Source: Bilabrum cf. latius
Taxonomy: Eukaryota
DNA: 64,000 nt
Direction: 5' to 3'
Assembly: GCA_965178125.1 (NCBI GenBank)
Contig: OZ237775.1
Span: 372,001-436,000 of the forward strand
The position numbers were made by a program, and so were the translations under genes. Every line of letters begins with the position of its first letter. The stretch's first letter is position 1. Below the pieces are notes generated by a model that did no database searches, was not told the origin of the DNA, and saw nothing but the letters and a program-made list of their open reading frames with translations. This document shows positions 6,315-38,745 of the stretch, piece by piece.

Positions 6315-8353
6315 TTAGTCATCGTCATCATCCTCGTCGTCCTCCACGATGACTGCATTCTCCACGATGTCGCGGAGAGCCGCAAGCTCCTTGGCCGCCT
6401 TGGCAGCCGCCTCCTCCTTGGACAGGCCCTCATCCCTCATAATCTTCGAGGCCGTGCGGATCATTGCCTTGCTGGCCGACCTCTGCACCACCAGGCGCTG
6501 CACGTGAGCGGCGAGCTCAGGCTGCAGCACCTTAAGCAGCTCAATCCCGCGCCACTGCATCTGCCCGTCTTCTATTAGGCGGGCCAGCGCCGAGCGGACG
6601 ATTCCCACGCCGCCAGCCGCCTTCACGCGGGCCAGGCACTCCTCTGCAAAATAAATTAAATAAATACAGATAAGCAACTTCTGTCGCAATCGAGGCGGAG
6701 GCGGCGGCTTTGGAGTGCTCGTGTGACAGGAATCGATATGACGCAGGGCTGCGGCCTGGAAAAGCCCCGTACAAATGGTGGCGCATCCGATGATAACGCG
6801 TTGAATCTCACCATTTTTGCACAGAGATAGCAGCAGCTGAGTGCCCCTAGTTTGCACCTGATAGTCTCCGTCGCAACGCGTCATGCCCAGGCAGACGGCC
6901 TCGCAGGCGCCTTCCTCTGCCAGCTTGTCGGGGTATGCGGAGCTCAGGGCAGTGAGCGCGGTCAGCCTGGGGTGGTAGGAATAGAAATAGGAAGACGAGA
7001 CGAGGAGTAGATAGGTCATACACGATGCGGCTGCACGTGGTGACGGCTAGCTACACGCTGTGCGATGCAGACTGGCATGCTATAGCAAACGAAGGAACAG
7101 GCTGAGGCAAACCGGGCGGAGGCTGTACATGCCAGCCAGTCGGACACACTCGTCACACAGTCTCACCCCCGCGCCTGGATTTCGGGCACCCACGAGTGCC
7201 TCTGCATCGCGAACACGGTTTTGCCGATGCCTCCGGCGTCCTGAGCGGGAAAGAAAGAAAGAAGAGCTCAGAGCGAAAGACGAATAAGACGTACGTGGAA
7301 GCTCGCGAACAAAGCTGGCCAAGCGGTGAACCGCGATGCAATGCATTGCACTGCACTCACCACGAACTCTTTGCAGGCGTCCTCGTCCCCTGTCAGCATT
7401 GTTGAGAACGCGTCCAGGGTCCACAGAAGAACCTCCTGGCTTCTAGCACGCTCCAGCATGAAGGTAATGAGCGCCTTGGGTCCGGATTTCATCACCTCGG
7501 CCACCTGGGCCGAGACGCCGTGCTTCCCCGGAATGTTCCCGAGGGCGATTTCCTTGGCCTTTCCGGCCTTGACCGCCCCACGCAGCATGCCCCATGTCTT
7601 CTTCTTTGCAACCAGCGTGGCCGCAGCGGCCTGGTCCGCTCCGCTGAGGCCCCGAATCGCCTCTAGCACTTGCCCGGCCCTGAAGGCGAGCATTGCGTCC
7701 TGAGCGTGCTGCTCGACGATCCCAGTGAGGACTTCGGCTGCCTCCGCCGCGAATGCTCGCAGAAGGTTATCTCGTGTTCCTTTCGGGGCATCGCCGTCGG
7801 TGGATCCGAATGTTCCGGTCAGGCGCTCGAGGCACTTGACGCCGTCCGTCGCAGCCTGGTGGTCGTCGGGGTTAGAGCGAATCCCGCGCACAACCTGCTC
7901 CACGATGCCAGCCGCTCCCAGCTCCGTGGCAAACGCCCCAGAAAGCTTTGCAATCAGGCGGAAAGCGCGAGACTGGACGGTGCTGTTCCATTGGTACAGC
8001 CTCAGCGCGCTTTCCAACGTCTTGACTGCATCAGCTTTCATGGCAGCCTCCTCTTCCGCGTCATTGTCGCCAACAGTCTACTCTAATGCTTCCAGTCCAG
8101 CGATGACTGCTTCCTGGCTTCCCATTTTGGACTCGATGCACGCAACAAGCGCAGCGCCACCCGCTTTCGATGCGGTCTCGACTGCCAGCAAATTCTCGTC
8201 TGGGCCGTCTCCAGCTGCACCGCCACCGGGGCCGGACATAGCCACAGGCTTTTCAACTGCTGATGCTCCTGCTACAGAGGCCTGCGAACGCAATTATATG
8301 ACGCAAAGAGGCCTACTAACCTCACATATCGGGTGCTTATCAAGACGCTCCAT
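6315..8353 (-). CDS. ARM/HEAT-like helical repeat protein with acidic tail, paralogue A (multi-exon)
   Basis: Exon peptides match the 14462..16700 gene (GNIPGKHGVSAQVAEVMKSGP; DYQVQTRGTQLL; QMQWRGIELLK). GT-AG introns near 8282-8320, ~7240-7367 and others. One in-frame TAG at 8078. Ends TAA at 6315. Start codon uncertain. Confidence 0.65.
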
Positions 8354-8818
8354 AGCACCCAGCTGTGGGGCAGCAACATGGCACATCCGCAGCAGTAGTC
8401 TAGATTGGACATGATAATCCACAAGAGCGAAATAAACAAACGATTTGGAGGCATTGTGGCTAATTGATCGCTGTTGCTGCCTCACCATTCTTCAATCTCG
8501 AAATTCAGGATCGCTTTGTGGTAGCACTGCTGGGAAAGCCGTACTGTGCTTATCAATGTTTAATCAACAAATTTTCGCTTGCTTACGCGTGCAGTCCCCG
8601 CTTATCGCAAGTAGCCCTATGCGAACCGGTTTCGTGCTTTTTGGTCGGGTCGCTGTTTTGGTCGCAAATGGCCACTGGCAGTCGTCCAGTCGCCAAGCAA
8701 GAAAGCAAGCACTTCGATTCGAGGCACTTCAATCCGGTGGCTATGAGAATCAAATATTTTACTCGCACGAAGACGAGTGGAAATCCGACACAAGTGTGCA
8801 CTGAGTAATGTATCAATC

Positions 8819-11800
8819 TCAAAGCCTGAGCCTCCTGCCAGAAGCCGCTGCCCGCCCGGAGCTGCCAGCGGAACGAGAGACGCGAGCCAGCCCATCCATT
8901 CCGGCACTTGCACCTGCACCGCTTCCATCCGAAGCCTGTCTGGCAAAACCCCCGTAGGAGCGGCCAGCCCAGAGAGTTGTCTCAGGTGGTGAACGTCCTA
9001 CCCGCCTCCCATCCCCTCGGAGGTGCTCCCTTGAATGCTCTGAGTTATCCAGCCCCATCTGAACCTTCTCCGGCGAATGGTTTTGCTTCTACAGCATCGT
9101 GACGAGTGCAGATTCCGCCGTTCGAGTGTTTCGAATGTCCCGCGCCTGGGACATGGTCAGCGGGTCGAATTCAGAACCACCACTACCTCCCCAACCCATG
9201 CCATTGGACAGCTGCACCTCCTCTTGCACCCCACGGGCGGCGCGGCGACCCTCAGCGAACCTTCGCTAGAGAACCTCGTGAGCCACCCGCGCGCGATGGG
9301 CGGCGCCAGTGCGACCGTCCCCGTCGCGTTGGAGCCAGCGCTCCCTTGCTTCCATCACCAGCCAGGAAGGAGCCCACCCCTGGGGGAGCGAACCTTCCTT
9401 CCGGGGTCGGTTGCCCGACCACTCGCACGCGTGAAGCAGGAGCACCCGCGCGCTGATCTAGGCTGGAAGCGCAGGCCTAGAGGGCTGCATGCAGCGAACG
9501 TTCCTAGCAAGTTCGGCGTGGACCTGGAGCTCCAGGGGGTCAGTGGGGGCTCTGTCAATCCATGACTAGGGACTGTGTGACGAGTGCATGCCCTCGTCCA
9601 CTCGCTCCTCTTGACCACTGCTGCTCATGCCAGCACTGCCGCTGCTATTTGTTGCTCCGGATTGCTGCAGCGCATGGCTGACGGCACTCGACAAAAAAGT
9701 GGCAGCACCGCCAGCCCACGCCGGTGTTGCAGGGTACTCTCCAGAGCCAAAGCCTTCCAGCACACCGTGTGTGACGAGTATTATATCCCTCTGTCTGTCC
9801 AGGATGGCGTGCAGCAATGCCTATCCACCCGGCATCTCTGCCACAATGCAGTGCACCCCATCGTGCTTCCCTGGCAGACTGCCTCCAATCCTGGCGAGCT
9901 TCCACAGGCCCGCCGACATGCTTCCAGCGGGGAAGGGGCAGCGCTCAACTGCTCTTGCTCTTGCCCTTGCGCTCTCGTCAGGGCCCAGCGGGCCACTGAA
10001 GCCATCCCCCCTGCCGAGCATTCTCCCCCGCGTGGGGTTAAAGAACTCCCGGGGGTCCCTCTTGCGGGGGGCTTCGCTCGTCACACCTTCAGCGGCAGCT
10101 GCAAGGCGGCATGCTGACGCAGGGCCCATCTCCTTGGAAAGAACACTGACAATCCGAGCTAACGGACTCTGCATTGGTGGCGCATGCGAATGCAAGCTTG
10201 CCTCCAGACCGAACTGAGGAGAGGGACTGGCACCGAAGCAACCGGTACCTGCATGCCAACCCCAACCTGAATCGTCCGTTATATTCTGCCCGACGGGTCG
10301 ACTGTATTGCCACCACGCCGAGTTCAGGGCCTCGCCCGACAGCTTCACAACCGCATCGCCGTTGCTACCTCGTGAGGTGTCATGGCCGCTGGCATTGCCC
10401 CAGCCACTTTCGGGTTCGGATCTCCTGCTTAGTCTGGCGTCCACGGCCCGTAGCAGGCTGGTGTCGGGCAGCACTCCCACTGACGGCCGCCGACTAACGG
10501 GGGGAAGCAGGCTCGCGATGACGCATCTGACGTCACTGCGGGCCGCAGCGTAATGCAATGGCAGGAACCCATCGTTGTCCCGGTGCCCAAGGCATGCGCT
10601 GTCGTGCTGCAGCAGCAGCAGAAGCACGTCGGTCGCCCCGCAAGCGGCAGCAACGTGGGCCGGGTTCAGACCCGCCAGGGAACAAGGCAGCCTCGAGGGG
10701 AGTCTTGCCTCCAAAATACGTGCCGTCGCCGAAGCGTTGCCGCATCTCGCAGCATAGTGCAGTGCAGTCTCGCCCTTGCTGTCCTGTGCGTCGATCAGCC
10801 AAGCAGCTCGCGTGTCGATCCTTGCCCTCCGAAGGAGTGCCAGGGCGCATGCGACGTGCCCGCCAACTAGGGAAGCCATGAGCGGTGAGGCCAATCGACG
10901 AACGACCTTACCTTGCTCGTCACACTCTTCACGTTTGGCCGGCGGGCCCCCGGCCTCGCTCGGTCCAATGCGTCCGCTGACAGCGTCCAACGCAGGGATA
11001 CCGACTCTGCCAGCGGCAGCTGCATCACGCATCAACCGGTTCTAATCCGATCCGATTCCCTTGTCTGTTCCCCAGGGAACAACGACGTCACCGGCGCAGA
11101 GAAGGTGTCCGCTCTGCAAACCCACCAATCGCCGCTGCACCGCCAACAGGCTGCCAGCCTTGGCCGCTTGGAACAGGGTAGCGGCAATGAGCGTGCGGTT
11201 TCTCGCGCGCCTGAACTCAACAATGGCCACCCTCTTGGTCGGGCTCGCAGGAAAACGAACGTTCGCGAACTCGCTGCCGCACCACCGGCTCAGTAGGCCC
11301 TGCAGCAGATTTGGCCGGCGCTCGCAGTACCTGATCGCCGACATGAAGCCGGGACTAAAGACGGGCACGCCGCACGAGGTCACTGGTTTCACTCGATCAC
11401 CCTGCGTTGCAGACGGACGGCGTCCTCCTGCCGCATATGCTGTCTTCGGGCCGCGGGCAGTCCGAGCACCCCAACCAGGTCCCGAGCTAGGGCTGCTTGC
11501 GCTCCCAAGGCGGGCATTGCCCTTTCGGCCGCTTATTCTTGCCAATATATCACGAATGGCCCGCGGGTCGTCTTTGATCCGATCACCCGGAATCGGAACT
11601 CGCCGGTCGTGAGCTTGCGCCGCGTCGTCGCGGGGCATCCCCCGTCTTAAAAAACCCTGCCGGTCGCGAACCATACTATCATGTATGTCAGAGCCACTTG
11701 GCGGTTGCTGCAGAGCTGTCGGAATGTATTCCGATGCTTCAGGACAATTTGTGAGTACCCTTGCCACCATGCTCTCCCAAATGAAGTCCTGGGATTCGAC

Positions 11801-13953
11801 AAACTCTGCAAACCAGCCGCGACAGTGCTCCGTCCCAACTAGCTCCTGAATCGCAGCTAGCTGCTCTGCGCGTGCCGATGCTGAGGCAGCAGCAGCAGCA
11901 GCGCTTGCACGAAGACTAGATTGATGGTCACTGGGGGAGGCACTGCCTTCTTCGCTGGCGCCGCCATCGAATCCCTTATCGCAACGGCTGGCTGGCGTCG
12001 GCCCAATGTTTACTGGAGTCGCGTGCCTGGGCCCAGATGGATTCGACGCTGTAGCGTGATCGGGCCAAAAATGGATTGCTCCAGGCGCGTGCCTAGGCCC
12101 AAAAGCGGCATCCCGAGGCTACCCACCCCTCCCATCCGCAGGCTACACGGACAACGCAATGTCATGAAGACCGTTAGTTCTTGCCAGGAACACGAGACCG
12201 GCAAGTTCAGCGTATTCGATTGCGTCCCTGCCACACTCATCCTTCACGTCCAACCGTGCACCATTTTGAAGCAGCATCATGACCCGGCCCGCCCGCCCAG
12301 ATGCGCAGGCAAGATGCATGGGTGTGATGCCGCCGCTTACAATCTGCGACAAAGAGCAATCGAAGGGCATGGGACGGAGCAGGAAAGGGTGCAACGGGAA
12401 GTAATTGACGAGCTGCCGGTGCCGGGCCAGGTGAACGGGTCTCCGCAAGCCCCAATTGCAATTTTGCGGCAAGTAGCGAAACAACCAAAATCAGGCCATT
12501 AAAAGGACATGACACACCACCAAGAAGGGAAAAACTCCCCCCAAAAAAAACTTACCGGTGCATTGGGATCGAAAGCACCAAGCTCCAGCAAGGCAGCCAA
12601 GGGACCGTCGACTTCCGATTCTCGGTCGCAAACCATATCCGGATCCGAGTCCCCATTTACGCTTGAATTGTCACGGCGATCGCTGAAGTTCGGCGGCTAC
12701 CAGATAATTTCCCAGATAGGTCTGGATGCAATAGGCGTCTGGCGGCGGGGGGCACCCCACGGTGCGGGGCCCGGTGGTGGGCTGGCTGCGCGCTCCTGCT
12801 GCGGCGTTGTCTTGTGGTGGGAGGCACCCCACGGTGCGGGGCCCGGTGGTGGGCTGGCTGCGCGCTCCTGCTGCTGCGGCGTTGTCTTGTGGTGGGAGGC
12901 ACCCCACGGTGCGGGGCCCGGTAGTGGGCTGGCTGCGCGCTCCTGCTGCTGCGGCGACGTCTGGCGGCGGGGGGCACCCCACGGTGCGGGGCCCGGTAGT
13001 GGGCTGGCTGCGCGCTCCTGCTGCTGCGGCGTTGTCTTGTGGTGGGAGGCACCCCACGGTGCGGGGCCCGGTGGTGGGCTGGCTGCGCGCTCTTGCTGCT
13101 GCGGCGTTGTCTTGTGGTGGGAGGCACCCCACGGTGCGGGGCCCGGTGGTGGGCTGGCTGCGCGCTCCTGCTGCTGCGGCGTTGTCTTGTGGTGGGAGGC
13201 ACCCCACGGTGCGGGGCCCGGTGGTGGGCTGGCTGCGCGCTCCTGCTGCTGCGCAGATTCATCCGTCAACCCACATTGTGGGGGGGACCATGGGCTGGTT
13301 GCGCGCTGCTGCGCAGATTCATCTGTCAACCCACGTAGAAGGGGGGACCATGGGCTGGTTGCGCGCTGCTGCTGCGATGGTCCCACGCCCGATGCTTCTT
13401 TCGCGACCTTCTTATCTGAGTCGGGAACCAAAATTCGAATGCTGGAGCTGGTTTTCATGCGCTGGTCGCTGGTGCCGTCGCCAGACTTTGCATCTGGCAC
13501 ATCATCCACAGTGTGCAAAGCTGCCTGAGCAGGTAGAAGCCGAGCAGCCTGATGAACCGGCTGGCTCAGCAACTCTCCAGATGATGCTATGCTCGATGGA
13601 CTCGAGGGACTCGAGGCGTGCGTGTGCGCCTGCCCTGACGTCGCTTGGGGACGGGCCTACCACAGGATCTGCGGCGGCGGCGGCACAGCAGCACCATCGG
13701 GTGATGATATCCTATCGTGTGAAGTGCCCTTAGCCTACCAACTGCTAAACACGTCCGGGTCTCCTTGTCCCTAGGCATCGTGGTATACGGATCCTTGGAG
13801 TGATCCGGTCTGTGACGGTCGCTTGTGCTCGGCGTCACGGTCCCATGGCTATTGACCTAAATTATGATTGTCGGGGGTTCGCTCCGGAGGCTGGAGAAGA
13901 TGGGAGTTGCCAGGCTCCAGCATAAATTCTTTCACATCTTCCAATCGAAGCAT
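8819..13953 (-). CDS. Large ankyrin-repeat protein with N-terminal Pro/Gln-rich tandem repeats; read with TAG=Gln
   Basis: Ankyrin motifs ITPMHLACASG, GETALHYAARCG, LNPAHVAAACG, FLPLHYAAA. Fragments 12143.., 11042.., 9821.., 9566.. and 8819.. share a frame; ends TGA at 8819. Intron ~12343-12555 (GTAAG donor). 5' end unresolved and may extend to ~14297. Confidence 0.65.
12739..13257. repeat. Coding minisatellite, 75-bp unit x ~7 (QQQERAASPPPGPAPWGASHHKTTP), followed by two shorter degenerate units
   Basis: gcaccccacggtgcggggccc recurs at 12752, 12824, 12899, 12974, 13049, 13124 and 13199. Confidence 0.95.
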
Positions 13954-19727: not shown

Positions 19728-20327
19728 CATTAACTCGTTCGTGTGGATTGGGTTTAGCTGTATACCACCCTGTAGGGGCAGTGACGTACATTGCGAGGGC
19801 TCTCCAAAGGATGGAAGGCAGCGCAATTGTGGTACTTCAAATCGATGTTTGACGGATGTCGGAGAGCAAATTGATTGATGGATAAGCTATCAATCTCAAT
19901 TGGATGCTGCAGTGAATGAACGTGGAAAGGGCACTTGTGTCGCCCTCTGCCACTCGCACTGTGGTGCACCTTGGCTCGACAATCGCACCTGGCATCCAGC
20001 TACGCTAGGCAAATGCACTCAAGTGTGCACAAGTGTGCTGCGAACGATTCCTTCGATCGGGATCTCTTGCCGCTACAGGTCTGCGATCAAGAGCCGCCCG
20101 TGCTCCCGCCTGCACCTGCGCCGCTTGCGGGGCCTGTTGGTCCAGTTCCTGTGGCTCCTTGGGCGGGTGCAGCTGCGGCACCGGTGCCTGCAGGTTGTGG
20201 TGGGCCTGCTCCTGCGCCTCCTTGGGCGGGTGCAGCTGCGGCACCGGTGCCTGCAGGTGGTGGTGGGCCTGCTCCTGCGCCTCCTTGGGCGGGTGCAGCC
20301 GCGGCACCGGTGCCTGCAGGCGGTGGT

Positions 20328-20332
20328 GGGCC
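20328..20332 (+). other. Left copy of 5-bp target-site duplication GGGCC (right copy 23970-23974)
   Basis: Left flank ends gtggtGGGCC and right flank starts GGGCCtgctcc. The paralogous empty site gtggtGGGCCtgctcc at 28077-28092 has one copy. Confidence 0.9.
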
Positions 20333-21008
20333 GGGGGGGGACAACGGGTGGTGGTAGGTACACCAAGCGTTGAGGACGAGGGCTACGCTACGCTCGCCCC
20401 TCCTTTAAAGGCATATTTAGCAACTCAAGTGTTTTCCCTATAAACCTAGATGATTTCCCAAGGGGTTCCCCAAGAACCCCTATAGAACCCCTCTATGTAC
20501 CCATTTTCAGATATAAAATTTACTCCTACGAAGTAGGGGTAAATTGAAGAATTCTAATCTTTATCCCCCTTATAAACTCTAACAGCAAAGACAGAGATGT
20601 TTTAGTAAAGTAGGAAAAAATGAAGAAATTAACCAAGTGTCAAAAACCTCTCTGTGTTTGCTGTAGGAACGAAAGGATGAATTCCCAAGAGACCAAGAGA
20701 CCAACCGAGGATTTTCCCAAGAGAACAAGGTATTTTATCAAGAGAACAAGGTAGTTACACCAAGCGACAAACCGATGAACCGACCGATGAACCGACCAAG
20801 GATTTCCCAAGGATTTCCCAAGGATTTCCCAAGGATTTCCCAAGGATTTCCCAAGCGACTAAATTGTTCTCCGAAGCAACCAAACCGATTACCCAAGAGA
20901 TGATACATTATAAGGAAAACGAAAACAAATTATAATTGTATTTTAAGTCCCTTTGGAAAAGTCCCCCAAAAATTGAGAGATTTGACAGGTCAATTATAAG
21001 AGACTTAG
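20333..21008 (+). repeat. Left terminal inverted repeat (676 bp)
   Basis: Reverse complement of 23295..23969; position p pairs with 44303-p. The ORF track shows the same 67-aa ORF on opposite strands (20640..20843 and 23460..23663). Confidence 0.95.
20796..20855 (+). repeat. 11-bp tandem repeat (CCAAGGATTTC)x5 within the TIR (mirror copy 23448-23507)
   Basis: Directly visible. Related TTCCCAAG motifs are dispersed through the TIR and occur once internally near 22905. Confidence 0.9.
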
Positions 21009-21295
21009 GTTTGTAACTCTTTCCTTCGTTTTGGATTAATAGAATTCCGCAATACTCTTACATCACTTGACAACAATTTCCACTAAGTATATATTTTACC
21101 TCCATTCACCGGACAAATCTGTTGTCCTATCTCAAGCAATAATTCTATGTGCTCCTCAGTTTCTTCCTTTTTGGTTTTGAGTAGATTATACTACTTCTTA
21201 AGGTCAAAATATGCTTTCCTTGCAATTAAATAATCTTTATATACTTCCATATACCTTTTCCAATTACCATATTTCCTTGGTCGTCCTGCTGACAT
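21005..21295 (-). CDS. Element ORF1: 96-aa basic protein with N-terminal AT-hook-like GRPRK motif
   Basis: MSAGRPRKYGNWKRYMEVYKDYLIARKAYFDLKK*YNLLKTKKEETEEHIELLLEIGQQICPVNGGKIYT*WKLLSSDVRVLRNSINPKRRKELQT. Two in-frame TAG; ends TAA at the TIR boundary. Confidence 0.6.
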
Positions 21296-21469
21296 TTTTT
21301 TAATTGTGTCTGTGTATCGTTGGGGAAAATGTATCAATTTTTCTTGGGGACTTTTTAATACCGATTTGTTTTCCACAAATTCCTAAATGGATTTTGTAGA
21401 AATACTTCTACACTTAAATAGTGGTTAAGAGAATTCATCTCCCCCAATATATATGTATATAATAAATCT

Positions 21470-22024
21470 ATGGATTATGCTCTTAGCGATAGTGATATTC
21501 GTGTTCTCCTCCAAAATCCACCAAATATTAAAGGATTTCTTCCTACGTCGGTAAATATTGTACCTTATACCGAATTAGGATAGTACAATAGTATTGATGG
21601 ATTGTTTTCCCGTTGTAATTGTTGCATTATTTTGTATCAAGAAGAAATAAACTCTGGACACTGGGTGTGCTTATTTAAGCGTAATAAAACAATATACTTC
21701 TTTGACAGTTATGGAATTCGTCCTGATAGGCAATAGCAGACAATGAGTGAAAGCGTGCGGAAACGTTTTTATGAAGACCCTGAGTTAATTTATTTAATGT
21801 ATCATTCTCCGTATAAGATTGACTATAACCCATATTAGTTTTAGGCGGATGGAATGGATATAGCAACCTGCGGGAGACATTGTATAGTTCGTCTTTGGAA
21901 TAGAGCGAAAAACGCTAATTAGTATAAAAAGTGGGTGGATAAGGTTTGTAAGAAACATACATTAAATCCTGATGAATTAGTGTATTTATTGACGTATCAT
22001 CTTAATGATATACAGGAAATATAA
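21470..22024 (+). CDS. Element ORF2: virophage/Polinton/adenovirus-type (adenain-like, clan CE) cysteine maturation protease, 184 aa
   Basis: Missed by the ORF track. Manual translation gives SGHWVCLFKRNKTIYFFDSYG ... YNPY*F*ADGMDIATCGRHCIVRL, i.e. catalytic His, Asp and Cys in family order. TAG at 21581, 21734, 21836, 21842 and 21920. Ends TAA 22022-22024. Confidence 0.9.
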
Positions 22025-22066
22025 ACGGGCATACATTAAATATTATTATATCACTTTATAGAAATA

Positions 22067-22378
22067 ATGCGTTGGACTTCAAAAGACCAAGATAAATGTA
22101 TGAGATTAAGAAATAAAATAGAAGACAAAATATGTAATTTAAACGTCAAACAAGGTGTTCTATCAGAAACAGCAATTAAGGAAATTTAGAGTTTATTTTA
22201 TAATATAACATTATTTGAAAAGGAACCTGAGAAGTATCATGAACAAATTCAATCACTGACAAATATGGTGGAAAACATTATATTTGAAGAGCAAGTAGAG
22301 TATCTTGTAAAATAGGCGAAAACACGAATTCTTAACAAAGACGAAATCAAAGAGATAATCGGTAATGTATCTAAATAA
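22067..22378 (+). CDS. Element ORF3: 103-aa helical hypothetical protein
   Basis: MRWTSKDQDKCMRLRNKIEDKICNLNVKQGVLSETAIKEI*SLFYNITLFEKEPEKYHEQIQSLTNMVENIIFEEQVEYLVK*AKTRILNKDEIKEIIGNVSK. Two TAG; ends TAATAA. Starts 42 bp after the protease stop. Confidence 0.65.
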
Positions 22379-22438
22379 TAAAGATGATATTAAGTCCCCA
22401 TAAAATTCTGATGCTTCTTGCTGTTAAAATGGTGTCAT

Positions 22439-22723
22439 TTATGAACTCCAAAGGTAAAAATGTGAGAAGAACTTTGGGGTTCTTGGTTTTACTTCGATAC
22501 CGTGTCGTTTGAAGTATCTAAATTGGCGGTCCGTATCTAAATGATTTAAATGGCTGTAATACCCTATTCTATCGTAAAATTGCTAATACCGCCTATCACC
22601 AAACGATGTAATATATTCATCATTTTCGTCAAAAACATCATACTTCTTATTCTTGCGTCTTGAGGGTGCTTTAAATTGAAAATTTTCAACAACCTTTTCA
22701 AAATCGTAGGTATGTGGCTTCAT
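22439..22723 (-). CDS. Element ORF4: 94-aa Tlr6F-like protein (family found in Polinton-like viruses, virophages and some giant viruses)
   Basis: PSRRKNKKYDVFDENDEYITSFGDRRY*QFYDRIGYYSHLNHLDTDRQFRYFKRHG...TPKFFSHFYLW fits my recollection of the family pattern S.RK.KKY.V...FG...Y...H.D..R...Y..RH...S...LW. One TAG at 22583; ends TAA. Family assignment is from memory, not a search. Confidence 0.65.
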
Positions 22724-22754
22724 AAGTACTTTATAGTATAGTCTTCTACTTATA

Positions 22755-22868
22755 TCAAAGCCCGAGCTTCTTGTATTCCTTTAGTTTTTCGTGTAATTTT
22801 TTCCAAATACGTGGATTAATTTGCTTGACAATATGCTCTATCATCAACTCCTTTAAAAATGGGTTCAT
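22755..22868 (-). CDS. Element ORF5: 37-aa basic micropeptide
   Basis: MNPFLKELMIEHIVKQINPRIWKKLHEKLKEYKKLGL, TGA stop. Preceded by the same upstream motif as ORF3. Confidence 0.4.
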   Translation of the reverse strand: MNPFLKELMIEHIVKQINPRIWKKLHEKLKEYKKLGL

Positions 22869-23294
22869 TTACTATAGTGATATAGAATGGCTTAAATTAT
22901 CATCTCTTGGGAAATCCTTGGAAAATAAATTTTAATATTTCTTTGTATCCTATATTGTCAAAATTTTTCAATCAATTTTTGTGTTTTTAATTGGAAAACA
23001 ATTATAATTTGTTTTTTATTTTCCTTTTGATTTTTATGGTGGCATCATAGGAGTTACAACATTTAATTTTAATCTTTGAAAAAGATATCAAAAGAGCGGA
23101 GGGCAAAGCCCGAGCATCTTGGGAACTTAATTTATTCTTTCTAAGTCTCTTATAATTGACCTGTAAAATTGACAAGTTTTTTGGGGACTTTTCGAAAGGG
23201 ACTTAAAATACGTTTTCGTTTTCCTTTTAATTTTAATGGTGGCATCATTGGAATTATAACATTTAATTTTAATTGGAAAATATATTTATTCTTT

Positions 23295-23969
23295 CTAAGT
23301 CTCTTATAATTGACCTGTCAAATCTCTCAATTTTTGGGGGACTTTTCCAAAGGGACTTAAAATACAATTATAATTTGTTTTCGTTTTCCTTATAATGTAT
23401 CATCTCTTGGGTAATCGGTTTGGTTGCTTCGGAGAACAATTTAGTCGCTTGGGAAATCCTTGGGAAATCCTTGGGAAATCCTTGGGAAATCCTTGGGAAA
23501 TCCTTGGTCGGTTCATCGGTCGGTTCATCGGTTTGTCGCTTGGTGTAACTACCTTGTTCTCTTGATAAAATACCTTGTTCTCTTGGGAAAATCCTCGGTT
23601 GGTCTCTTGGTCTCTTGGGAATTCATCCTTTCGTTCCTACAGCAAACACAGAGAGGTTTTTGACACTTGGTTAATTTCTTCATTTTTTCCTACTTTACTA
23701 AAACATCTCTGTCTTTGCTGTTAGAGTTTATAAGGGGGATAAAGATTAGAATTCTTCAATTTACCCCTACTTCGTAGGAGTAAATTTTATATCTGAAAAT
23801 GGGTACATAGAGGGGTTCTATAGGGGTTCTTGGGGAACCCCTTGGGAAATCATCTAGGTTTATAGGGAAAACACTTGAGTTGCTAAATATGCCTTTAAAG
23901 GAGGGGCGAGCGTAGCGTAGCCCTCGTCCTCAACGCTTGGTGTACCTACCACCACCCGTTGTCCCCCCC
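23295..23969 (-). repeat. Right terminal inverted repeat (675 bp)
   Basis: Reverse complement of 20333..21008, one terminal base shorter (C7 vs G8). Confidence 0.95.
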
Positions 23970-25942
23970 GGGCCTGCTCCTGCGCCTCCTTGGGCGGGCG
24001 CAGCCGCGGCTCCAGCTCCCCCGGCCGCTTGCATCGCTTGTGGCTGAGCATGGGCAGCGACCCTGTGCAGTATCAGCGCAGCTGCTCTAGTTGGCGGTAT
24101 GTCTGCCCCGTACATGACGTGGTAGTCGCGCAGCAGCTACGCGCACTCGGCGTGTCCGCCTTGCCATGCCTGACCTATTGGCAGACTTCCCCCGGCAGTG
24201 CATGGTGTTGTGAGCAGTCGTGCGGTGCACGAGTGTCTGAGCCTTTTTGCGAGCTCAATTGGCCTGCCCTCGGTCGCTGCTTTGCACACGAATGGAAGCG
24301 TCAGCCTCGACGCGGGCAGCTTTGCGGAAATCCAGGAGATGCTGCACCCTTGGCGATCGCGGCCATCCACCGATGTCAATGCCCTGTATGAGCCCTGCCC
24401 CAAGCCGAAAGACGTGGGGAATGTTCCGGTTGCCCAAGACTCTGCCAGGAGGACGGAGGGCTGCAGCCAAGGCGGCAGGCGTGGCGGTTCGCAGGCCACG
24501 ATTCCATTCTCTGACACCATCAGGTAAACTAGAAAGTAGCTGAAAGTCTCTGCAGAATTGTAGTCCATGGCGGACCCAGTCCACTATGTACGTCTTGGTG
24601 GCGTCGGCGGGGTCGTTTTCGTGGAGCTCAACGAGGGCCCGGCACTTCATGAGGTCTACTCTGTCCTCGCCACCAACCGCCCCTTGCAGTCGCCGTTGTA
24701 ATTGCAGTAGTGAACTCGCAACTTGTCGCTCCTCTTGAGACAGGAATACCTCGCGGTTTGTTGGTACGATAGGACTAGGGGCTGCGCCAGCTGGGGGTAC
24801 TCGTTCCCATCAGCTCTAGTACCATGATCACGTGTTTACCCGCCTCTTCAGGTGCCAGATCCAAGTACACGGAGTGTGACACATGCAAAGCCTTGTCCTC
24901 GTAGAGCTTTATCCTGAATCTCATAGTATGCAATGCCGCGGAGGTAAACGGATCGCGCATTGAATATCGAGAGACCTGGACTGGTCCAATACGAGTTAGC
25001 ACCCGCCCTGTCGGCGTGTCAAGTTCAATGCTGAGGGGATTAACCCGGACAGCTATCACCATATGGTCACGAGCCGCCGTGTATACGGTGAATGTAGGCG
25101 GCGGGGGACCACTCGCAGCAAGAATCTTCTGCTGGTTTGCGAGCCGGATCCTCTACTGCCGGCCGCTTCCACGGACGGCCGAGTGGGCTTGAGAAAGTAG
25201 GACTAGCACAGACAGCAAAACGGCAAGAGGAACCGTGCGCATATTGTTGTAGTGTGTACGACGTGGGCGTTCATCAGGGCGGTTGCCGGCGGAAGCCAAC
25301 CGATGAGATCTCTGATCAGCGACGCCGGTCGCTACCGCCGATATAGCTGTTCCACACACACAGAGGGGTAATGCGAAGTCAGAAGCATATGTGCAACATT
25401 GAAAAGTTGGTCAAGTAAGACTGAACTCTCACAACTTGCGCAAGCTTCAGCATACCTTGATGATGGCCTGAAGCAGCCCAGGGCAGCGACTTTTTCTTCG
25501 CAGCGCAACTGATGCCGTCGCAGATGCTAGCGAGTTTGCAAGTGCATTCGACAAGTATCCTGTAAAATATGACAAAACAGGAGACGGGCTCTGTGCTTTG
25601 GTGAGTGCGTGCGTCCTCGCGAATTAATGCTGCACTGGTGCACCCCCACTGCGAACCCGTTTACACCTGAAATTACAGTCGCAGCTGCATGCAATACTGT
25701 GGAATGGAAAGCCCATTGGCGTATTTGAGGCTGCACTACAGCGAGGATGTGAGATGCAAGGCAGACAGATGCAGCCGCAGGAGCAAATTCGATATCCCGG
25801 CAGAGTGAGCGATTCGGCAGACTTTCCGAAATGAACCATGACTGTGGCGAGCATATGTTGCACTAAATGCACGAATACATTCTAGACGTAATGAAACGCA
25901 TCGCAGAATCGCACTGAAAGCATGATGACTGTAGCTAGCAGG

Positions 25943-31368: not shown

Positions 31369-34300
31369 ATGTCGTCTCTGCCGCACGAATCACGTGCGAG
31401 CGTAACGAACGATGGCAAAGGTGCTGCTTCCGATTCAGGAGCGTCGCAACCATCAGTTCGCATCAGTGTCCCTCCGAATGACGAGATGAAGGGCGCCCAG
31501 CTAAACTTAGAAGCATGGAAAACCTCACAGGTGTCTCAAAGGCAAGTAGACGAGAACGATCGCAGCCAGCCAGCGTCAACTGGCGAGCACGGAGGCGACG
31601 AACTCTTGCCCCTTGTGGACTACTTCCCCCTGCTGCAAGAAATCGAACTTTTCATCGGTAAGAATTCAAATAGATTATTTTGATACGTGCAGCAGGCGTG
31701 CGTATCCCGCATTCGCAATCGATTGCTCCTCGCCATGAATCGCCGACCATTGCAGACTTGGAGAATCGGCGAATTCGCGGACGGACTGTCCTGTACGTTA
31801 GAAGGTATGCTCGCCGCGGCGCACGACCGCCCAAAGCGATTCGGCTGCATTGCACGCCGGCAGTGCCGCCAGCGCCCGTTGGGCCAGCCGCTGCGTCGCC
31901 AGCTGCAGCCGCTTCTCAAGCCAGAGCGGCCGGGCAGGCGAGCATGTCGGACGCTGACGGCCCCTCCTCACTCGTCACGCAGCGATCCAGCACCCCATCA
32001 ACACTCGTCACACCTCGATCAGGCGGCGTAGTGGTGGGCCGCTGCTTCGTCGACGGGCAGCCGGCCCCTCACAGGCACGAACACCCGGATCTGGCCCCTG
32101 CCTTTTTGTGGTCCGACCTAGACGATCGGAGCGGTGAGGCATCTGGACAGGCCGAGATGGGGGGCGATGCTGGGAACGGATCGTTGCCACCACCATCGAC
32201 CTCGACTTCGTCATCAGGGGCAGCAGCAGCATCCGCCACTGCCAGGCGCGCAGTGATCGACACGGACGGGCTGCGGGTGTCTTACAGGGCGGCCCAGCGC
32301 AGGAAGCGGATGGGGGAGCTGGCGATCCGGTGGCCTGCGGAACCAAGCGGCGCCGCGCAATCCGCCGACGAGGGCGAGGGGTGGGTATCCTCCAGCCACG
32401 CGGTCGTGGTTGAATTCGCGGCGGTTGGGCCCATCCAGGGCCTCGTGTTCTCTGGCGGAACCGGCGCCACGCAATTCACCCGCGGCGGTAGCTCCAAGCT
32501 GCCATCCCCCGCTAGTTTCGTGCTCGCCCCACCGACCCCCGAGCGCACTTGTTCCCTGGCGTGGGAGGGGCTCGGGGGCCGCCGCTGGATGCCCTGCGTG
32601 GACCTGCCCAACGCGAGGTACATGTTCCGGTTTCGGGTTGTTCCCTGGGATGCCTGCTCTGGGCTCTAGCCAGTTGCGTCGGCGACAGCAGCGGCAACTT
32701 CACCTGAGTCACCTGAGTCAGCCGCTGCGGCGAAGCTACACCGCGTTGGCAGCAAGCCGCAGCCCCCACTGGTTGTGATCGCCCCGGGCCCATTCCAGGG
32801 ACGGGTATCACATGGTGGGACGAGTGATAGGGCGGGGGATGTGATGAGTGGGTCGGGCTAGGCATCGATGGAAGCGGACGATGACGACGAGCAGGAGAGG
32901 GGGCAATCCACCGGTGGACTGATCGGACTAGCCGAAGACCCCGTCCCGCCGCAACTGCGCAGAGGCAAAACTGACACCTAGCGAGACAAAACTGACACCC
33001 AGTCCTCCCCTTCCTCCGGCTGCTGGCAGTTCCGGTTTGGCGAGTGGATGCCCATGGCTGCCGCAGACGCGGCAATCGCGGCGGGCCGCTGGGCCGCCAC
33101 AGACCTGGGGTCGGCCACAGGCCGAACCCCAACCACCTCGACGCACTCGTCACACCAGACGCAGCAGGGAGAGTCGGCTGGACCGGCGGTTGGTGCAGCG
33201 GGTTCTGGGCCCACAGAACAGTCGAAGGGATCTGCCAAAGCAGTCACGAGAGGCGCGGCTTCGTCCTTGTCCCGGTCTTCGTCGTCCCCGTTGAAACCAG
33301 CCTTGCCCAGCAGCACCAGCACCGCTCTCGCCGTGGGAGCCGGCGCCGCGCAATTGGTTCCGCTGAGGCAGGTGTCGATCACGGGCCTCTCGCCGCCGGC
33401 TCTAGCGGCCCTTGCAGCGGATCACGGCATGAACCCAGAGACGGGTACCGTCGTACGGTTGGGACCCCCCGCAGAACGCCTCCATCATCATCACCATCAT
33501 CACCATTCGCAGAGCCGGCCGGGGCGGGAACCGGTTCGTGCGCGGCGCCAGCGGTCCGGTTCCGCAGGCCGAGATGAGATGCTGGGCGGCGCCCCGCCCA
33601 CAATGGCTCGGGAGTCATCGACCGCAAGCGCGAAAACCGCATCGCACGGTGGTGCGGCCGCTGGGTCAGGGGCGCAGTGGAAGGATGGCCCGGGGTCCAT
33701 GCTGCGGTTCCGCTTTTGCGCGGCGCCGTCTGCCGGAGACGGTCGCCTGTTGTCTCCCGCCGGCATGCTGACGTGCTTCCAGGACACTCTCGGGACGTTT
33801 CCCGGAACGTTCCTGGGACATTCTCGGACGTTTCTTGCCTTCGTCCCGGGTCTGGAGGCGGCCTGCGCGCCCCTCCTGCGGCACGCCGCCATCCTGGGAA
33901 ACGGCCCGCTGCCGGGCTTCTCTGCGTCGCCCACATCGCACTTCCTATCCCGTATGGCGGCCGAGCGGGCCACGGGGGGGGGTGCTGGAGGTCGCGCGGG
34001 CGGGGGGTTTGGGTGTGCAGCGGCCTGTCCTGTGCCCGGCGCCGGCGTGCTGCTTCCCCTATCTCTGCTGTCGTCACACCTGAGGCCAGACGCGGCGCTG
34101 GACGCCAGGTGCGGGGTGGCCTGGGGACTCGCCCTCGCCTGCGCCAAAGGTGCACTGCCTTGCAGCGGCTGGAGGCACGAGTGGATGGTGCCTGCGCTTG
34201 CTTACCACCTTTGCTGGCAGTGGCTGGAGAGGGCGCTGGGCCAGCCAGGGAACAACGGATCGGGGAACAACGCGGGGGCCGAGGCGAGAATCCGCGTGTT

Positions 34301-37300
34301 CCTCGCCCAGAGGGTTGCAACCGCCATGGCGGAGGCTGCGGTGCAGGCCGGGCCGCTTTGCCCACCCCCTGCAGTGGAGGACGAAACTGACCCCGGCTGG
34401 GACAGGGAGATCGCCGGTCTCACCGCGACTGACACCACCGTGATCGGACCAGGCAGCGGAACATCATCGCGCGGCGCCACCGCAGTCCGTCCCCTTGCGG
34501 GGGTCGAGGTGGCGGAAGGAGACCCCCTGCCCTACCTCCTCGAGCCCTGGCGGTCCGCCTCTGTGGGCGCCCGCACATGCCTCCTGCTCCGATCTCTGGC
34601 GTCCACGCTCGGGGCCGGCCCATCGAGGCACGCGCTTCGGCGGGCTGTGGGGCAGGCGGCGGCGGCGGCGGCGGCGACCGGAGCCAGGCAGCGCCAGGCG
34701 GCTGCCATGGCAGAGCGCGAAGTAACCGCTCGGTGGCGGCTTCAGGTCGCAACTGACGGTGATGCGGTTGCAACCGGTGATTTGCAGTCGTCACACTCGG
34801 GAACGCTGGGCACGCCCAAGACCAAGCTGCCGCAAGCCTCTTCCTCACCATCGACATTGTCATCGTCATCCCACGCTCCTCCGGGCTAGAGCAACGGCGC
34901 CGGCACGGCTAGCTCCAAAGCAACAGGACTTGCAGACGGTGGGACGAGCCCGAGCAGGCAAACCAAGGCCCAAAGTTAGGCCAAAACCCAGGCCAATGGC
35001 TCCGCAGCCCCTGCACCCCTCGCGCCCCACAGAAGCAGATCAGCGCTGGTCGCCCGCAAGGCGCAGACCGCACTCGTCACACTGACCTCCAAGATTCTCG
35101 CCGCCATGGGTGGTCACTCGTCACACGCTGCGGGTGGATCCGCTGCGGACGCCATGTCCCCAAGGACCCCGGGGGGTACCACCCCAAAGGGGATGGCATC
35201 CCCGCGATCCCCGGGCTCCGGCGGGGGCAGTGTGGGTGGTAAGAGCCGGCCTGAGCACGCCCTTCGAAGACTTCCCGCCGTAGCCGCTGCAAGCCGGTTC
35301 GCAGGTGGATCCACTCCGCTGAGCGGTTTCGGCCTCCCGCCCCTGCTGGCCCTCTGCGGCCGGTCCATGGCGCTCCACGCCGAGAACGCGCACTCGATGG
35401 GTGCATCGCACGATGGTGATAGCACCAGAGGGGATCTGCCTGCCACCGCGCTGGCCCTGGCAGGCGGGATTTGGTGGTGCGGCGCCGGCACGCGCGATTT
35501 CGAGGGCCTGCTCCTTCGAGTGGCCAGCGCGACGCAGAGGCTGCCCGTGGCGCAGTGGGCGCAGGGTTCGCTGTACTCGGCGAACGTTCCTCAGGTGCAG
35601 CTCTCGTACCAGTTCTCCAAGCAGCGGAAGTGCCTCTACGTGGCGCTCACCCAGGAGGCCTCCGCTGGTTCCGCAAGCGCGGCGCCGCTGGCCACGCTGT
35701 GCGACTACGTGATGGGCGGGGCGGGCGGGGCTTCGGCTGCCGGGGTCGGGCTGTGCTCTGCCTCCGCTGCTGCGGCGACATACGCATCCGCGATCCGGCT
35801 GGGCCAGACCCTGGCCGCAGAGCATTCGTCACACGCCGCTAGATCCTCCTCCTCGTCGTCGTCCTCGCGCCGCGGCAGGGGATTCGGAGCCGGAAGCGAT
35901 GCCTCCCACGGTGAATTCGCCTCGCACCTGCTCAGGTGCATGTCCTCGGTGCGCGCCACGGGCGGTTCCGCAAGCGCGGCGTGGTCCGGTCCGCTCGTCA
36001 TCTTGGTACAAGAGAAGGACGGGCTCCAGTGGAAGCACACGCTGCGGGCGGGAAGCTACGCGGGGGCGGGCCTGCAAGCCGACGCGGACGGCGCAGAGGC
36101 CGCCGGCGCGGGGGCCGGAGGATCATCACTCTCCAACAGGAAGGGCCGGAAACCGACGAGACTGACACCGGGTGCCGCCGCCACGCTGGCAGCCCAGGAA
36201 GCGGCACGAAAAGCGGAAGCCAGCGGGATGCAGGCCGCCGGTGACATCGCGCTTGGCGGAGCCCCGGCAGCTCACGTCCCTGTGCTCCACCAGCGGTTCC
36301 TTGTGCCTGTGCACGCGGCGCCGGAGCGGGTCAAGTCCAGGAAAATCTCGTTCTAGAGGAAAAGGGAGCGGCCCAGCAACAAGCCGACGGCCAGGGTGCA
36401 TCGTATTGCGGAGCGCATCAACGACACCTCCGTCGCGACCATCTCCACGGACCCCTACCTGCAGCAGTGGATGTCGGTCACCGCACTCGTCACGCCACTG
36501 TTCGCCGCGCAGGCGCTTCAGGTGCAGGATGATGCCGCGGCGCAGCTGCGGGCCATCGAGCAGCTCGGCTCCATGGTAACCCGGTCCCTCAGCGACGCAG
36601 AGCAGCACAACACCCTGTCGGCGAGAGCGGACCGGCCCCCCTCGGAACCGCTTGGGACCGGCATGCAGCTCATGTGCCTGAGAGTGTTGGTCGATACCGG
36701 TTGCAACCGCCAGGGCCGGTTCCACCCCTTCGTGCGCGAGGCCGCGTGGGTGGCCGTGGCGGAGTGGCAGTCAAGGAGGGCGGGGCCACTCGCACCCCTG
36801 TGGGGCCTGGGGCCATCAGCGGCGAAAGAGTACCGCGTGGATCTGGACGCGGGTGGTGGTGGGGGCGCGAGTGCGGGAATGGGCGTCTAGGGGGGCGTTG
36901 GTGCGAGTTGGGGGCCGGCTGGTGGTGCTGGGGTTTTGGGTCTTGGATGGGGTGCACCGCACGGTGGTGAGGTGGACGCGCGCGATGCCTCCAGCGGCAC
37001 CGGCGCCGGCGCCGCGCAATCGCTGGGCACGCTTGCCTTGGTTCCGCTTCCCCGCGCGAGCCAGAACGCGTCCCCTCAGCGACTTCAGCTCGTCAAAGGG
37101 AGCGGCTGGGCGGGTCGGGGCGCGGGCGCGTGGGTGGCATTTGACTCGATGCAGTTCGAGATGGGCCGGTTCTGGTGGTGCCTCGAACGGGACCTGCCAC
37201 CACCTCCGGGTGTCAGGCGCTCCGGACACCTCGCCGAACGGTTAGCTCCGAAGGGCCTCCCCGCGGCGCGCTGGTTCACTGCAGACGACCTGCAGAACCA

Positions 37301-38745
37301 CGTGGATCTAGTCGATGCGGGCGAGGCACGAGACGCCGGCACGATCGGGTACGGCCTTCGGGGCGGGGAGGAGGAGGAGGAAAGGGGGGTACAGCGTCGG
37401 CGCTTGCAACCGGGTAGGTTCCGCACCGGGAAGGGCGCCGCGCAATCGTCGAAAGCGGCCTTGCTGCCGTGGGAGGCTGACACGGCAGGTGGCCGCGCGA
37501 GCAGGGCGGGGCTCGTCTCCGGGCTGGGCTGCCTCCGCGGTTCCGACGGAACTTCGGCGCCGCGCGCTGTGGAGCTGTTGCTTCGCTGCGGTGCCGCGCT
37601 CTCCATCCCGCTCTCGGAAGCGGAGCGGGCAGTCTCGCTGACCCAGTGCGAAGCGTCGTACGCCTGCGTTCTGATCCGATCCATGGCGTCGGCCGTCGCT
37701 GCGAGCCCGTGGGCGGGACAGGCCAGGAGGCGCGGTGACGGGGGCGGCGGTGCGGCAGCTTCGCCAACGTTCGATGGACTCGGAATCGAGTCCGCGTCGG
37801 CGGAGGCTGTCGCGGACGAGGCCGCCAAGCGACTGACTTCCCCTTCCCCTCTCCCTTCCTCCTCCGCTTCCTCCTCGACAGCAGGATCAGGATCAGCTTC
37901 AGGATCAGTGTCGTCTCTATCCGTGGGTCTGCTCGCGGGCGCTGGCGCCGATGCGACCGCGAAACAGATTCCTGACCCGCTGGGGCTCGCGCTCGCCCCA
38001 GGCTCCAAGTACGGCCCATCTGGCGCCGCGCTAGCGGAACCGGGGGCCAGGCACCCGGCCGCAGCTCGCGGTGCCGTGGTGGTTCGCGCCTCGCTGCCCT
38101 CGGCCGTCGACAGCAACGGCAGCCCGGCCGGTCCAGGCCCTGGCTTCGGCATCGATTCTGTGATGTCTGCTGCTGCTGCTGCCGCCTCGGGTGGGGCGGG
38201 TGGGGCGTTGCGACCAACAGGGGGGGCAGGTCCTCCTTCAAACGGTCGCACTGGCCCGGCCCGTCCCAAGTCAGTCAGGGTCGTAGCGGGTCCCATCGCA
38301 GGGTACGGCGCTGGCGCCGCGCATCGTGCCTACGGTATGTTCCGCACGTGGCTGTTTGCAGCAGTGCAGCGGCTTGACCTGGCGGCGCCGCGCACTGGTT
38401 CCGCAGCGCGGCTACTCCCGCGCGTGGTGTCACGGGAGGGGGCCGAGGCCGTCGGGGTCGAGTGCTGCCGCGCCCTTGCGGAACTAAGCCGGTGCGGAAT
38501 GCGCGGCGCCGCATCGCAGATGCGACAAGTGGCGGCTCAGCTCGGGCTTCCGCACGGGCTGCGTGTTGCGGCGTTGCGCGGCGCCGCCATTGCGGAACTC
38601 ATTGCGCGCCCGCCAAGGCAGTGGCCAGCGGGTTGGGCCCCGCGATCAGGATCGTCTTCATCTTCATCTTCGAAGCATGGTTCCAAACGCGCCGCGAAAG
38701 CATCCTCCGGGGCGGCTGCATCGGCTCTGGCTGCGGGAGCGGCGG

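Follow-up and report, generated by a model that had tools for sequence, protein, structure and literature searches.

A 3.6-kb element with long terminal inverted repeats in the genome of Bilabrum cf. latius: a probable defective derivative of an endogenous virophage that reads TAG as glutamine

A 64-kb stretch of the genome of the protist Bilabrum cf. latius (assembly GCA_965178125.1, contig OZ237775.1, positions 372,001 to 436,000) was analysed as a whole and is referred to below as the window; its own numbering is used throughout. The window contains a 3,637-bp AT-rich element at 20333-23969, bounded by long terminal inverted repeats (TIRs) and a target-site duplication (TSD). The most probable explanation, to which a probability of about 0.6 is assigned, is that the island derives from an endogenous virophage, is defective and non-autonomous, and is one of several members of a family in this genome. 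It encodes a virophage-type protease, designated PRO, a small Tlr6F-like protein and three further small open reading frames (ORFs).

Gene content of the element

No gene for a capsid, penton, packaging ATPase, polymerase or rve integrase was found in the element by ORF calling, by Pfam searches or when the proteins of its closest metagenomic relative, a contig designated L001, were compared with its six-frame translation. The six frames likewise contained no remnant of capsid, penton, ATPase or polymerase genes. The 15 L001 proteins matched them only at PRO, Tlr6F and a small ORF, and matches of locus ORFs to reading frames of the TIRs were dismissed as chance alignments. Because the capsid, ATPase, polymerase and integrase genes are absent, the element is non-autonomous, as had been proposed in a first-pass annotation of the sequence, which called it a miniature element; it cannot replicate, package or integrate by means of its own genes.

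Among the features expected of a virophage genome, a protease of the Sputnik V9 type was present, and a Sputnik V20-type double-jelly-roll major capsid protein (MCP), a penton and an FtsK/HerA-type ATPase were not. Two properties of endogenous mavirus-like elements (EMALEs), long TIRs between GC-rich host flanks and a short TSD, were also found. Transpovirons are linear plasmids of giant viruses, about 7 kb in length and with TIRs, that encode a helicase; Pfam detected no helicase or other transpoviron-type gene in the element. Polintons, or Mavericks, carry a protein-primed PolB and an rve integrase and have a 6-bp TSD. The element has neither gene and its TSD is 5 bp; a passage of PMC8547959 gives a range of 5-6 bp for the TSDs of Maverick/Polinton elements (MPEs).

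Ends of the element and target site

The GC content was 0.27-0.40 at about 20400-23800 as compared with 0.52-0.71 across the remaining window, so that the element is the sole AT-rich island in the 64 kb. A repeat search of the window identified inverted arms at 20329-21008 and 23295-23974, and an exact comparison showed that 20334-21008 is the reverse complement of 23295-23969, with 675 of 675 positions identical, a perfect inverted repeat far beyond chance. An additional unpaired G at 20333 gives the left TIR (20333-21008, plus strand) a length of 676 nt and a tip of eight G residues (G8), while the right TIR (23295-23969, minus strand) has 675 nt and a C7 tip. Together the TIRs make up about 37% of the element.

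The sequence GGGCC was read directly on both sides, at 20328-20332 and 23970-23974. The right boundary was also seen in Logan contigs (k=31) from four public runs (X1-X4) of one study with the same organism label, which may include the source of the window and are thus not independent support; host-only contigs in all four begin exactly at 23970. The target was a GC-rich 63-bp tandem repeat of the host, identified by the repeat search, that occupies 20147-20332 and resumes at 23970-24013. The undisrupted site within the repeat unit is GGTGGTGGGCC/TGCTCC, and because the intact host unit reads ...GGTGGTGGGCCTGCTCC..., exactly 5 bp (GGGCC) were duplicated. The island, its TIRs, its homopolymer tips and its TSD had all been described in the first-pass annotation, which regarded the ends and TSD as being of the kind made by an rve integrase, and this description was reproduced in full by the repeat search, the exact comparison and the GC profile. 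Since integration as a short unit and loss of the middle after insertion would both leave the TIRs and the TSD intact, the two are not distinguished by these features.

Each TIR contains tandem arrays with units of 11 bp (5.5 copies), 12 bp (2.2 copies), 21 bp (2 copies) and 8 bp (2.5 copies). In the left TIR the arrays span 20685-20855 and include CCAAGGATTTC, repeated 5.5 times at 20796-20855. The repeat search also revealed a non-coding block of about 400 bp just inside the right TIR (22893-23294) that consists of degenerate direct copies of an inner-TIR unit, in units of about 150-200 bp belonging to families D5, D6, D7 and D9; for example, 23119-23211 and 23273-23365 are 86% identical. 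The DNA of the element had no match in the rest of the window, which therefore holds no second copy of the short form. No Rfam match was obtained at E ≤ 0.1 between 19000 and 25000, and ARAGORN found no tRNA in the window.

In a model of the empty site, the region around the insertion (20087-20344 and 23930-24646) is a 63-bp tandem repeat without a stop in any of the six frames. Excision would remove 3,642 nt, a length divisible by 3, and might restore a host ORF of 305 aa on the minus strand, which is the longest of these frames and belongs to no Pfam family. None of the read-derived contigs listed contained a joint across the whole element of the kind that an empty-site allele would give, an absence that is uninformative because the insertion site is a tandem repeat.

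Genetic code of the element and its host

With the standard code the island yields fragments only, since ten in-frame TAG codons interrupt its reading frames. When TAG was taken as a residue, five compact, intact ORFs were obtained, which agrees with the initial ORF assignment. There was no TAA or TGA inside the ORFs, and TAA terminates four of the five in the element and 11 of 14 in L001. Among the 27 Gln codons of the element 10 are TAG; the corresponding figures are 65 of 184 for L001 and 60 of 442 for the host ORFs. That TAG specifies Gln follows from the alignments of PRO, Tlr6F and a host gamma-glutamyltranspeptidase (GGT). A 97%-identical homologue of PRO, P0001, has Gln at all five TAG positions, including the nearly invariant catalytic Gln; in Tlr6F the TAG codon falls in the conserved motif RYQQF; and at one TAG in host GGT, Gln is found in two of the three solved homologues shown.

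The host sequence on either side behaves in the same way. Long, intron-poor ORFs of 2,000-2,900 aa extend over 53583-62171 (minus), 31662-39989 (plus), 43203-50771 (plus) and 1-6085 (minus) when only TAA and TGA are stops. They have 2,863, 2,776, 2,523 and more than 2,028 aa, respectively, with 10-19 in-frame TAG codons each, and bear eukaryotic domains (TFIIH Ssl1, gamma-glutamyltranspeptidase, LRR, ankyrin and SIR2_2). The nuclear genome of the host thus reads TAG as a sense codon, by inference Gln, and terminates with TAA and TGA. Reassignment of TAG alone is rare among eukaryotes. A TAG-only Gln nuclear code is described in Iotanema by Panek et al. (2017), and a 2024 paper is reported to describe UAG reassignments in phyllopharyngean ciliates. 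One of the host proteins (53586-62171, minus strand, 2,862 aa) combines a SIR2_2 domain with a kinase-like stretch, a Pro-Ala dipeptide run of about 170 residues and repeats rich in Gly, Ala and Ser.

The protease

PRO is encoded on the plus strand at 21470-22024 and has 184 aa, five of them Gln residues specified by TAG. The search for homologues gave 26 sequences, none of them named. The presumed catalytic residues, His64, Asp79, Gln125 (a TAG codon) and Cys134, occupy invariant or nearly invariant columns. The invariant motifs of the alignment are GHW, YG and CG, with Gly63-His64, Tyr81-Gly82 and Cys134-Gly135 as the residues concerned, and Gln125 is nearly invariant.

The AlphaFold2 (AF2) model of PRO had a pLDDT of 91 and a pTM of 0.89. 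Its best viral match in Foldseek was Sputnik V9 (E 8.6e-15, TM scores 0.84/0.86, rmsd 2.2 Å, 35% identity); an adintovirus adenain (8e-6) and Ulp1-like proteases of giant viruses followed far behind. In the PDB the fold matched adenovirus protease, OtDUB, SseL, XopD, Ulp1, poxvirus I7L and African swine fever virus (ASFV) pS273R. PRO and V9 are similar in size (184 and 175 aa) and have the same fold and the same H-D-Q-C order of catalytic residues. They differ in that the catalytic Gln and four further Gln residues of PRO are encoded by TAG, that Pfam is blind to PRO and that PRO has no capsid substrate in cis.

Sequence-based searches were less revealing. No Pfam model recognised PRO, including those of clan CE, and its profile gave weak matches to PDB sequences (E 0.38-0.76), all of clan CE. 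A single-sequence search of the PDB returned WD40 proteins only, which were rejected as spurious summing over repeats, and P0001 as a single query had no match among the viral contigs. The model and the conserved columns together predict that PRO is a V9-type maturation protease of clan CE with its catalytic residues intact, in keeping with its initial assignment as an intact protease of the adenain type.

In a tree of 41 protease sequences, the bootstrap values of which were not fully settled, PRO paired with P0001 (support 100/97) and was joined next by the L001 protease (96/75), to which it is 58% identical, in a clade with P0002 and P0003 (98/94). This clade was nested among the proteases of contigs that encode Sputnik-type MCPs.

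Tlr6F and the small ORFs

The fourth ORF (22439-22723, minus strand, 94 aa, one TAG) encodes the Tlr6F-like protein that the first-pass annotation had recognised. It scored 27.6 bits against the Pfam family PF19058 (DUF5754), for which the gathering cut-off is 27.4, with E 3e-6, and had 22 homologues with identities of up to 67%. All 16 columns that are invariant in an alignment with 17 homologues are retained. The AF2 model (pLDDT 94.7) is a four-stranded meander with two helices, for which no usable fold match was found; the best E value in the Foldseek search of the PDB was 0.44 and the best VIA-align Z score over 48,161 chains was 3.2. Tlr6f is equated with PF19058 in an excerpt of a 2025 paper (PMC12220804). 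The relevant passage of Yutin et al. (2015; PMC4642659) describes it as a small protein with no known fold, conserved in almost every Polinton-like virus and also present in several virophages and in many of the giant viruses, and it is listed in EMALE types 1 and 2 in the portion of the literature consulted.

ORF1 (21005-21295, minus strand) encodes 96 aa from a Met at 21295, with two TAG codons and an N-terminal GRPRK motif, and terminates at a stop situated a single codon within the left TIR. Its sole homologue is P0051 (103 aa), which is 37% identical over residues 5-94 and 6-91 of the two proteins (pairwise E 2e-15). Because this alignment is nearly end to end, ORF1 is considered a real and essentially complete small gene, although it belongs to no Pfam family and has no relative in the 160 virophage-like loci described below. 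ORF3 (22067-22378, plus strand, 103 aa, two TAG codons), which is helical by composition, is an orphan without a homologue among proteins of 56-181 aa or in the 160 loci. It lies in a copy-specific segment at about 21994-22431. The remaining small ORF (22755-22868, minus strand, 37 aa) is homologous to the middle of a 72-aa ORF in L001 (59% identity over 32 aa, pairwise E 8e-12), and TATAGTAA lies immediately upstream of its ATG. PHROGs gave only insignificant matches for the four element ORFs that were scanned.

The motif TATAG[TA]A was found no more than 40 nt upstream of seven of the 14 L001 genes, compared with a frequency of 2.4% in windows taken at random. In the element it is found ahead of ORF3 and the small ORF and once in either TIR. 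Because its definition was post hoc, the motif is only suggestive of a shared promoter, probably of the helper-virus type.

Metagenomic relatives

Relatives of Tlr6F were located in 218 stretches of metagenome contigs and 168 of IMG/VR, and the best 80 of each were used, a total of 160 loci. Most are on contigs of 15-25 kb, and some are in giant-virus bins. A hidden Markov model (HMM) of the protease family matched 26 of the 160 loci, often right beside Tlr6F. ORFs of at least 330 aa from 21 distinct loci having both PRO and Tlr6F were scanned for Pfam-type domains (61 ORFs in 19 loci; L018 and L029 had none), and one or both Sputnik MCP domains were present in 12 of the 21. Among the scanned relatives, an rve integrase occurred only in L052; others had PolB or primase-helicases.

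Tlr6F and the protease are immediate neighbours on the same strand in L014, L023, L030 and L088 and on opposite strands in L029, L052/L053 and L146. This adjacency, which recurs in many virophage contigs with no relation to one another, is a hint that the two genes are functionally connected. In L143 the protease (9710-10243, plus strand) is split by a single in-frame stop and is either a pseudogene or part of another recoded virophage.

Of the 160 loci, L001 is the closest relative for both PRO and Tlr6F. The part analysed (1-13499, 13.5 kb of a 17.8-kb metagenome contig) encodes a Sputnik-type MCP (PF21915, 5.6e-27; PF22031, 1.7e-25), a penton-like ORF that scored below the cut-off, PRO, an ATPase, a protein-primed PolB, a DUF285 repeat protein, Tlr6F and the 72-aa ORF; no rve integrase was found in these 13.5 kb. 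Three of the five genes of the element are shared with L001, at identities of 58% (PRO), 67% (Tlr6F) and 59% (small ORF). Moreover, L001 was the only one of 103 loci of at least 6 kb to open strongly with TAG read-through, from 1,046 to 4,214 aa. L001 is a complete environmental virophage in a TAG=Gln code, and standard gene calling splits its protease and most of its other genes.

L001 and the element are alike in this code and in the share of TAG among their Gln codons, in the position of the small ORF and Tlr6F, which are found close to one end and directed inward in each, and in the TATAG[TA]A-like motif upstream of genes. They differ in that L001 has the full gene set of MCP, penton, ATPase and PolB, and there is no similarity at the DNA level outside the coding regions. 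TIRs were found in none of the 14 whole relative contigs of at least 9 kb, so that the G-run tips of the element are not comparable with those relatives.

Taken together, the fold of PRO, the genes shared with L001 and the 12 loci with Sputnik MCP domains show that the element is derived from a virophage and is not Polinton-like. The broader origin given in the first-pass annotation, virophage or Polinton-like, is accordingly narrowed to the first.

Other family members in the same organism

The contigs of the four runs, for which word depth is not a measure of copy number, contained sequences related to the element that differ from the copy in the window. A variant TIR showed 14 differences plus one additional 12-nt unit, a variant of the protease 24 differences over 527 nt and a variant of the Tlr6F block 3-6 differences. 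Other contigs match the element from 21372 onwards to the right, as far as 22442, or from 22969 onwards to the right, with a different sequence past each of these points. The existence of these diverged TIR, PRO and Tlr6F-block versions with other neighbours indicates a multi-member family in the genome.

In three of the four runs a contig joins 21993 directly to 22432. In this commoner form the 3' end of PRO must therefore abut the 3' end of Tlr6F, with the ORF3 segment missing or replaced. Joints in contigs of other family members collapse or skip inner-TIR repeat units at 22893-23294. The right arm, in which PRO and Tlr6F converge and are followed by the small ORF, the repeat units and the TIR, is also present in the commoner copies, whereas the segments with ORF1 and ORF3 are specific to this one. 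The corresponding stretches (21009-21442 and 21982-22478) were covered only by contigs with no differences from the window, and the word depth of these contigs was in the range of the host flanks, which as a depth and not a copy number is only a hint that they occur once. As a ratio to that of the host-flank contigs, the word depth of the element-specific contigs came to about one half in X1 and X3 but exceeded one in X2 and X4, a difference between runs that could be due to GC bias, strain differences or extrachromosomal copies.

The protease variant corresponds to P0001, which is on a contig of 12,842 nt, since both amino acid differences (N16T and A146G) are identical. Of the 16 changed protease codons listed, 14 were synonymous, including a TCC to AGT change between Ser codons, which argues that the protease copies diverged as working genes.

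Origin of the element and alternative explanations

If the element is a defective derivative, deletion and recombination in a full-length member of the family would have produced it, with the TIRs either retained or regenerated. Its perfect TIRs and intact ORFs suggest that it is young. The 5-bp TSD would be compatible with an rve-type integrase. The homopolymer tips would suit the sliding-back step known from protein-primed replication of the PRD1/phi29 type, and L001 encodes such a polymerase. Replication, packaging and movement would be possible only in trans, with the polymerase, capsid and integrase of a full-length relative and during infection by a giant virus. On reactivation of such a relative, the mini-element may be expressed, copied and perhaps packaged, in the manner of a defective-interfering genome. 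There was no sign that it had been amplified as a unit or that the protease had been kept for a function of its own.

Several observations weigh against this explanation. The full-length parent had to be postulated, as no full-length element with these TIRs was seen. The first-pass annotation had reasoned that a colinear remnant of a full-length element, with truncated genes at its junctions, would be a decayed provirophage, and this is not what was found: none of the genes at the junctions shows visible truncation, the alignment of ORF1 with its homologue covers almost the full length of both and PRO and Tlr6F are complete. Nor is the gene order a colinear deletion of L001, in which PRO and Tlr6F are on the same strand and 4 kb apart, whereas in the element they are convergent neighbours. 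Five intact ORFs and perfect TIRs would also be expected of a satellite under selection, and the contig depths do no more than hint at a single copy. Finally, in runs X1, X3 and X4 the contig that carries ORF1 extends 79-83 nt further to the left of 21009, into a sequence that is unlike the left TIR of the window and holds a motif of the GGGGACTTTTCC type, in the orientation found on the right side of the element. The ORF1 segment could thus have a second context, or the 21008/21009 junction could differ between samples.

The first-pass annotation had suggested that the element may be a satellite mobilised in trans and that its protease could help or interfere with the helper. Much of the evidence would also fit a true virophage satellite of this sort, a short genome that a full-length virophage would replicate from the TIRs, package and integrate in trans and that would be selected to keep PRO and Tlr6F because they help or interfere with capsid maturation of the helper. 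In addition to the perfect 675-bp TIRs, the intact TSD and the untruncated junctions, such a satellite would account for the retention of the catalytic and invariant residues in five open genes, for the post hoc TATAG[TA]A motif ahead of ORF3 and the small ORF and in each TIR as upstream of the L001 genes, for the frequent adjacency of PRO and Tlr6F in virophage contigs and for the strong purifying selection between protease copies. That selection may wholly predate the truncation, however, and ORF3 is an orphan. At 3.6 kb, the element is far below the 15-25 kb of its relatives, which makes packaging uncertain. A second copy of this short structure was not encountered, and the segments with ORF1 and ORF3 were found in the exact form of the window alone and at a host-like depth, although this last point is weak evidence. 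A selected satellite is consequently regarded as a serious but rather unlikely origin. Slightly more doubtful is the fuller scheme of a working third-tier parasite: a 3.6-kb satellite copied from its G-run TIRs by the protein-primed polymerase of the helper and packaged and integrated in trans, whose own PRO and Tlr6F would tap or sabotage helper capsid maturation, in a lineage co-adapted to the TAG-only Gln code.

An error of assembly, in which a full-length virophage was collapsed between repeats or the junctions of the TIRs with the core were misjoined, so that the real element is longer, was judged improbable. It could explain why the contig of 21009-21442 extends into non-TIR sequence in three of the four runs, why there are further loose ends at 23298/23303 and why no listed contig spans the whole stretch. 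A repetitive family is prone to such errors, a problem stressed in passages of both Bellas et al. (2023; PMC10120064) and Hackl et al. (2021; PMC8547959). These loose ends nevertheless have an ordinary explanation in the other members of the family, since contigs built with k=31 are expected to break or be extended incorrectly at multi-copy TIRs. Furthermore, the element is only 3.6 kb long, has unique host sequence and a clean 5-bp TSD on either side and interrupts a host repeat that is otherwise continuous, and both of the unique internal segments are covered by error-free contigs.

Least probable is that the island is a Polinton or Maverick, a fragment of a Polinton-like virus or an unrelated TIR-bearing DNA transposon that captured a protease. 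TIRs and a TSD are generic features of transposons, Tlr6F is commonest in Polinton-like viruses according to the passage of PMC4642659 consulted, and the four loci with only weak protease matches whose ORFs were long enough for the scan (L002, L005, L019 and L086) have no Sputnik MCP. Against this stand the match of PRO to Sputnik V9, which is far better than that to adintovirus adenain, its position among the proteases of contigs with Sputnik-type MCPs, the three genes in common with L001 and the lack of a transposase, rve integrase or PolB of any kind in the element.

Comparison with known systems

The closest parallel to a defective virophage derivative of this kind is provided by the EMALEs of Cafeteria burkhardae. 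Passages of Hackl et al. (2021; PMC8547959) describe truncated, TIR-flanked EMALEs of 5-15 kb, the TIRs of which "must have regenerated", and TSDs of 5-6 bp for mavirus and mostly 3-5 bp for EMALEs. As portrayed there, EMALEs resemble the element in being AT-rich islands in a GC-rich protist chromosome, in their short TSDs, in forming multi-member families within one genome and in the long TIRs that are kept or regenerated despite the loss of genes, and some of them (EMALE08) lack morphogenesis genes. They are unlike it in their length of 5-15 kb as compared with 3.6 kb; apart from PRO and Tlr6F, the element retains just three small ORFs, and its genes use TAG for Gln. EMALEs also have an rve integrase, and none was seen in the element or in the analysed part of L001. 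A mean virophage TIR length of 808 bp, as well as partial elements, is mentioned in the excerpt of a Halocafeteria preprint. Halocafeteria itself was rejected as the host, since the preprint puts its GC content at 47%, as compared with 52-71% in the host sequence of the window.

Integrated Polinton-like elements of Streblomastix strix use the TAA/TAG=Gln code of their host, according to the portion of Bellas et al. (2023; PMC10120064) consulted. They too are small DNA viruses integrated in a genome with a deviant code, but their capsids are of the Polinton-like type and their code reassigns TAA as well as TAG, whereas the element is of virophage type and TAG alone is reassigned.

[quoted passage not shown] The element differs from them in its five open genes and in that no amplification of the short form was seen; its dependence on a helper is deduced from gene content only. 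The element is best viewed as an extreme, recoded form of the truncated, TIR-flanked endogenous virophages that are already known.

Implications

A search of the literature found no paper on a non-autonomous miniature virophage, although supplementary tables may list shorter elements. With that reservation, the element is the smallest TIR-flanked virophage derivative that we found described, at 3.6 kb as compared with 5-15 kb. The search also found no paper on a recoded virophage genome; the nearest reports were a hint of an ochre-suppressor tRNA (PMC6905037) and the recoded Polinton-like elements of Streblomastix (PMC10120064).

L001 and the element reveal a virophage lineage in a TAG=Gln code, in which TAG provides about one third of the Gln codons, including that of the catalytic Gln of the protease. 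It follows from the code that these virophages, and by implication their giant-virus helpers, are tied to hosts with the rare TAG-only reassignment, and that standard gene callers would shred such genomes. Endogenous virophages are thought to be inducible defences against giant viruses, and their decay, their recombination and their own parasites are hardly known. Because its five genes are still open, the element would offer a clean test of whether the ends of a virophage alone suffice for mobilisation in trans.

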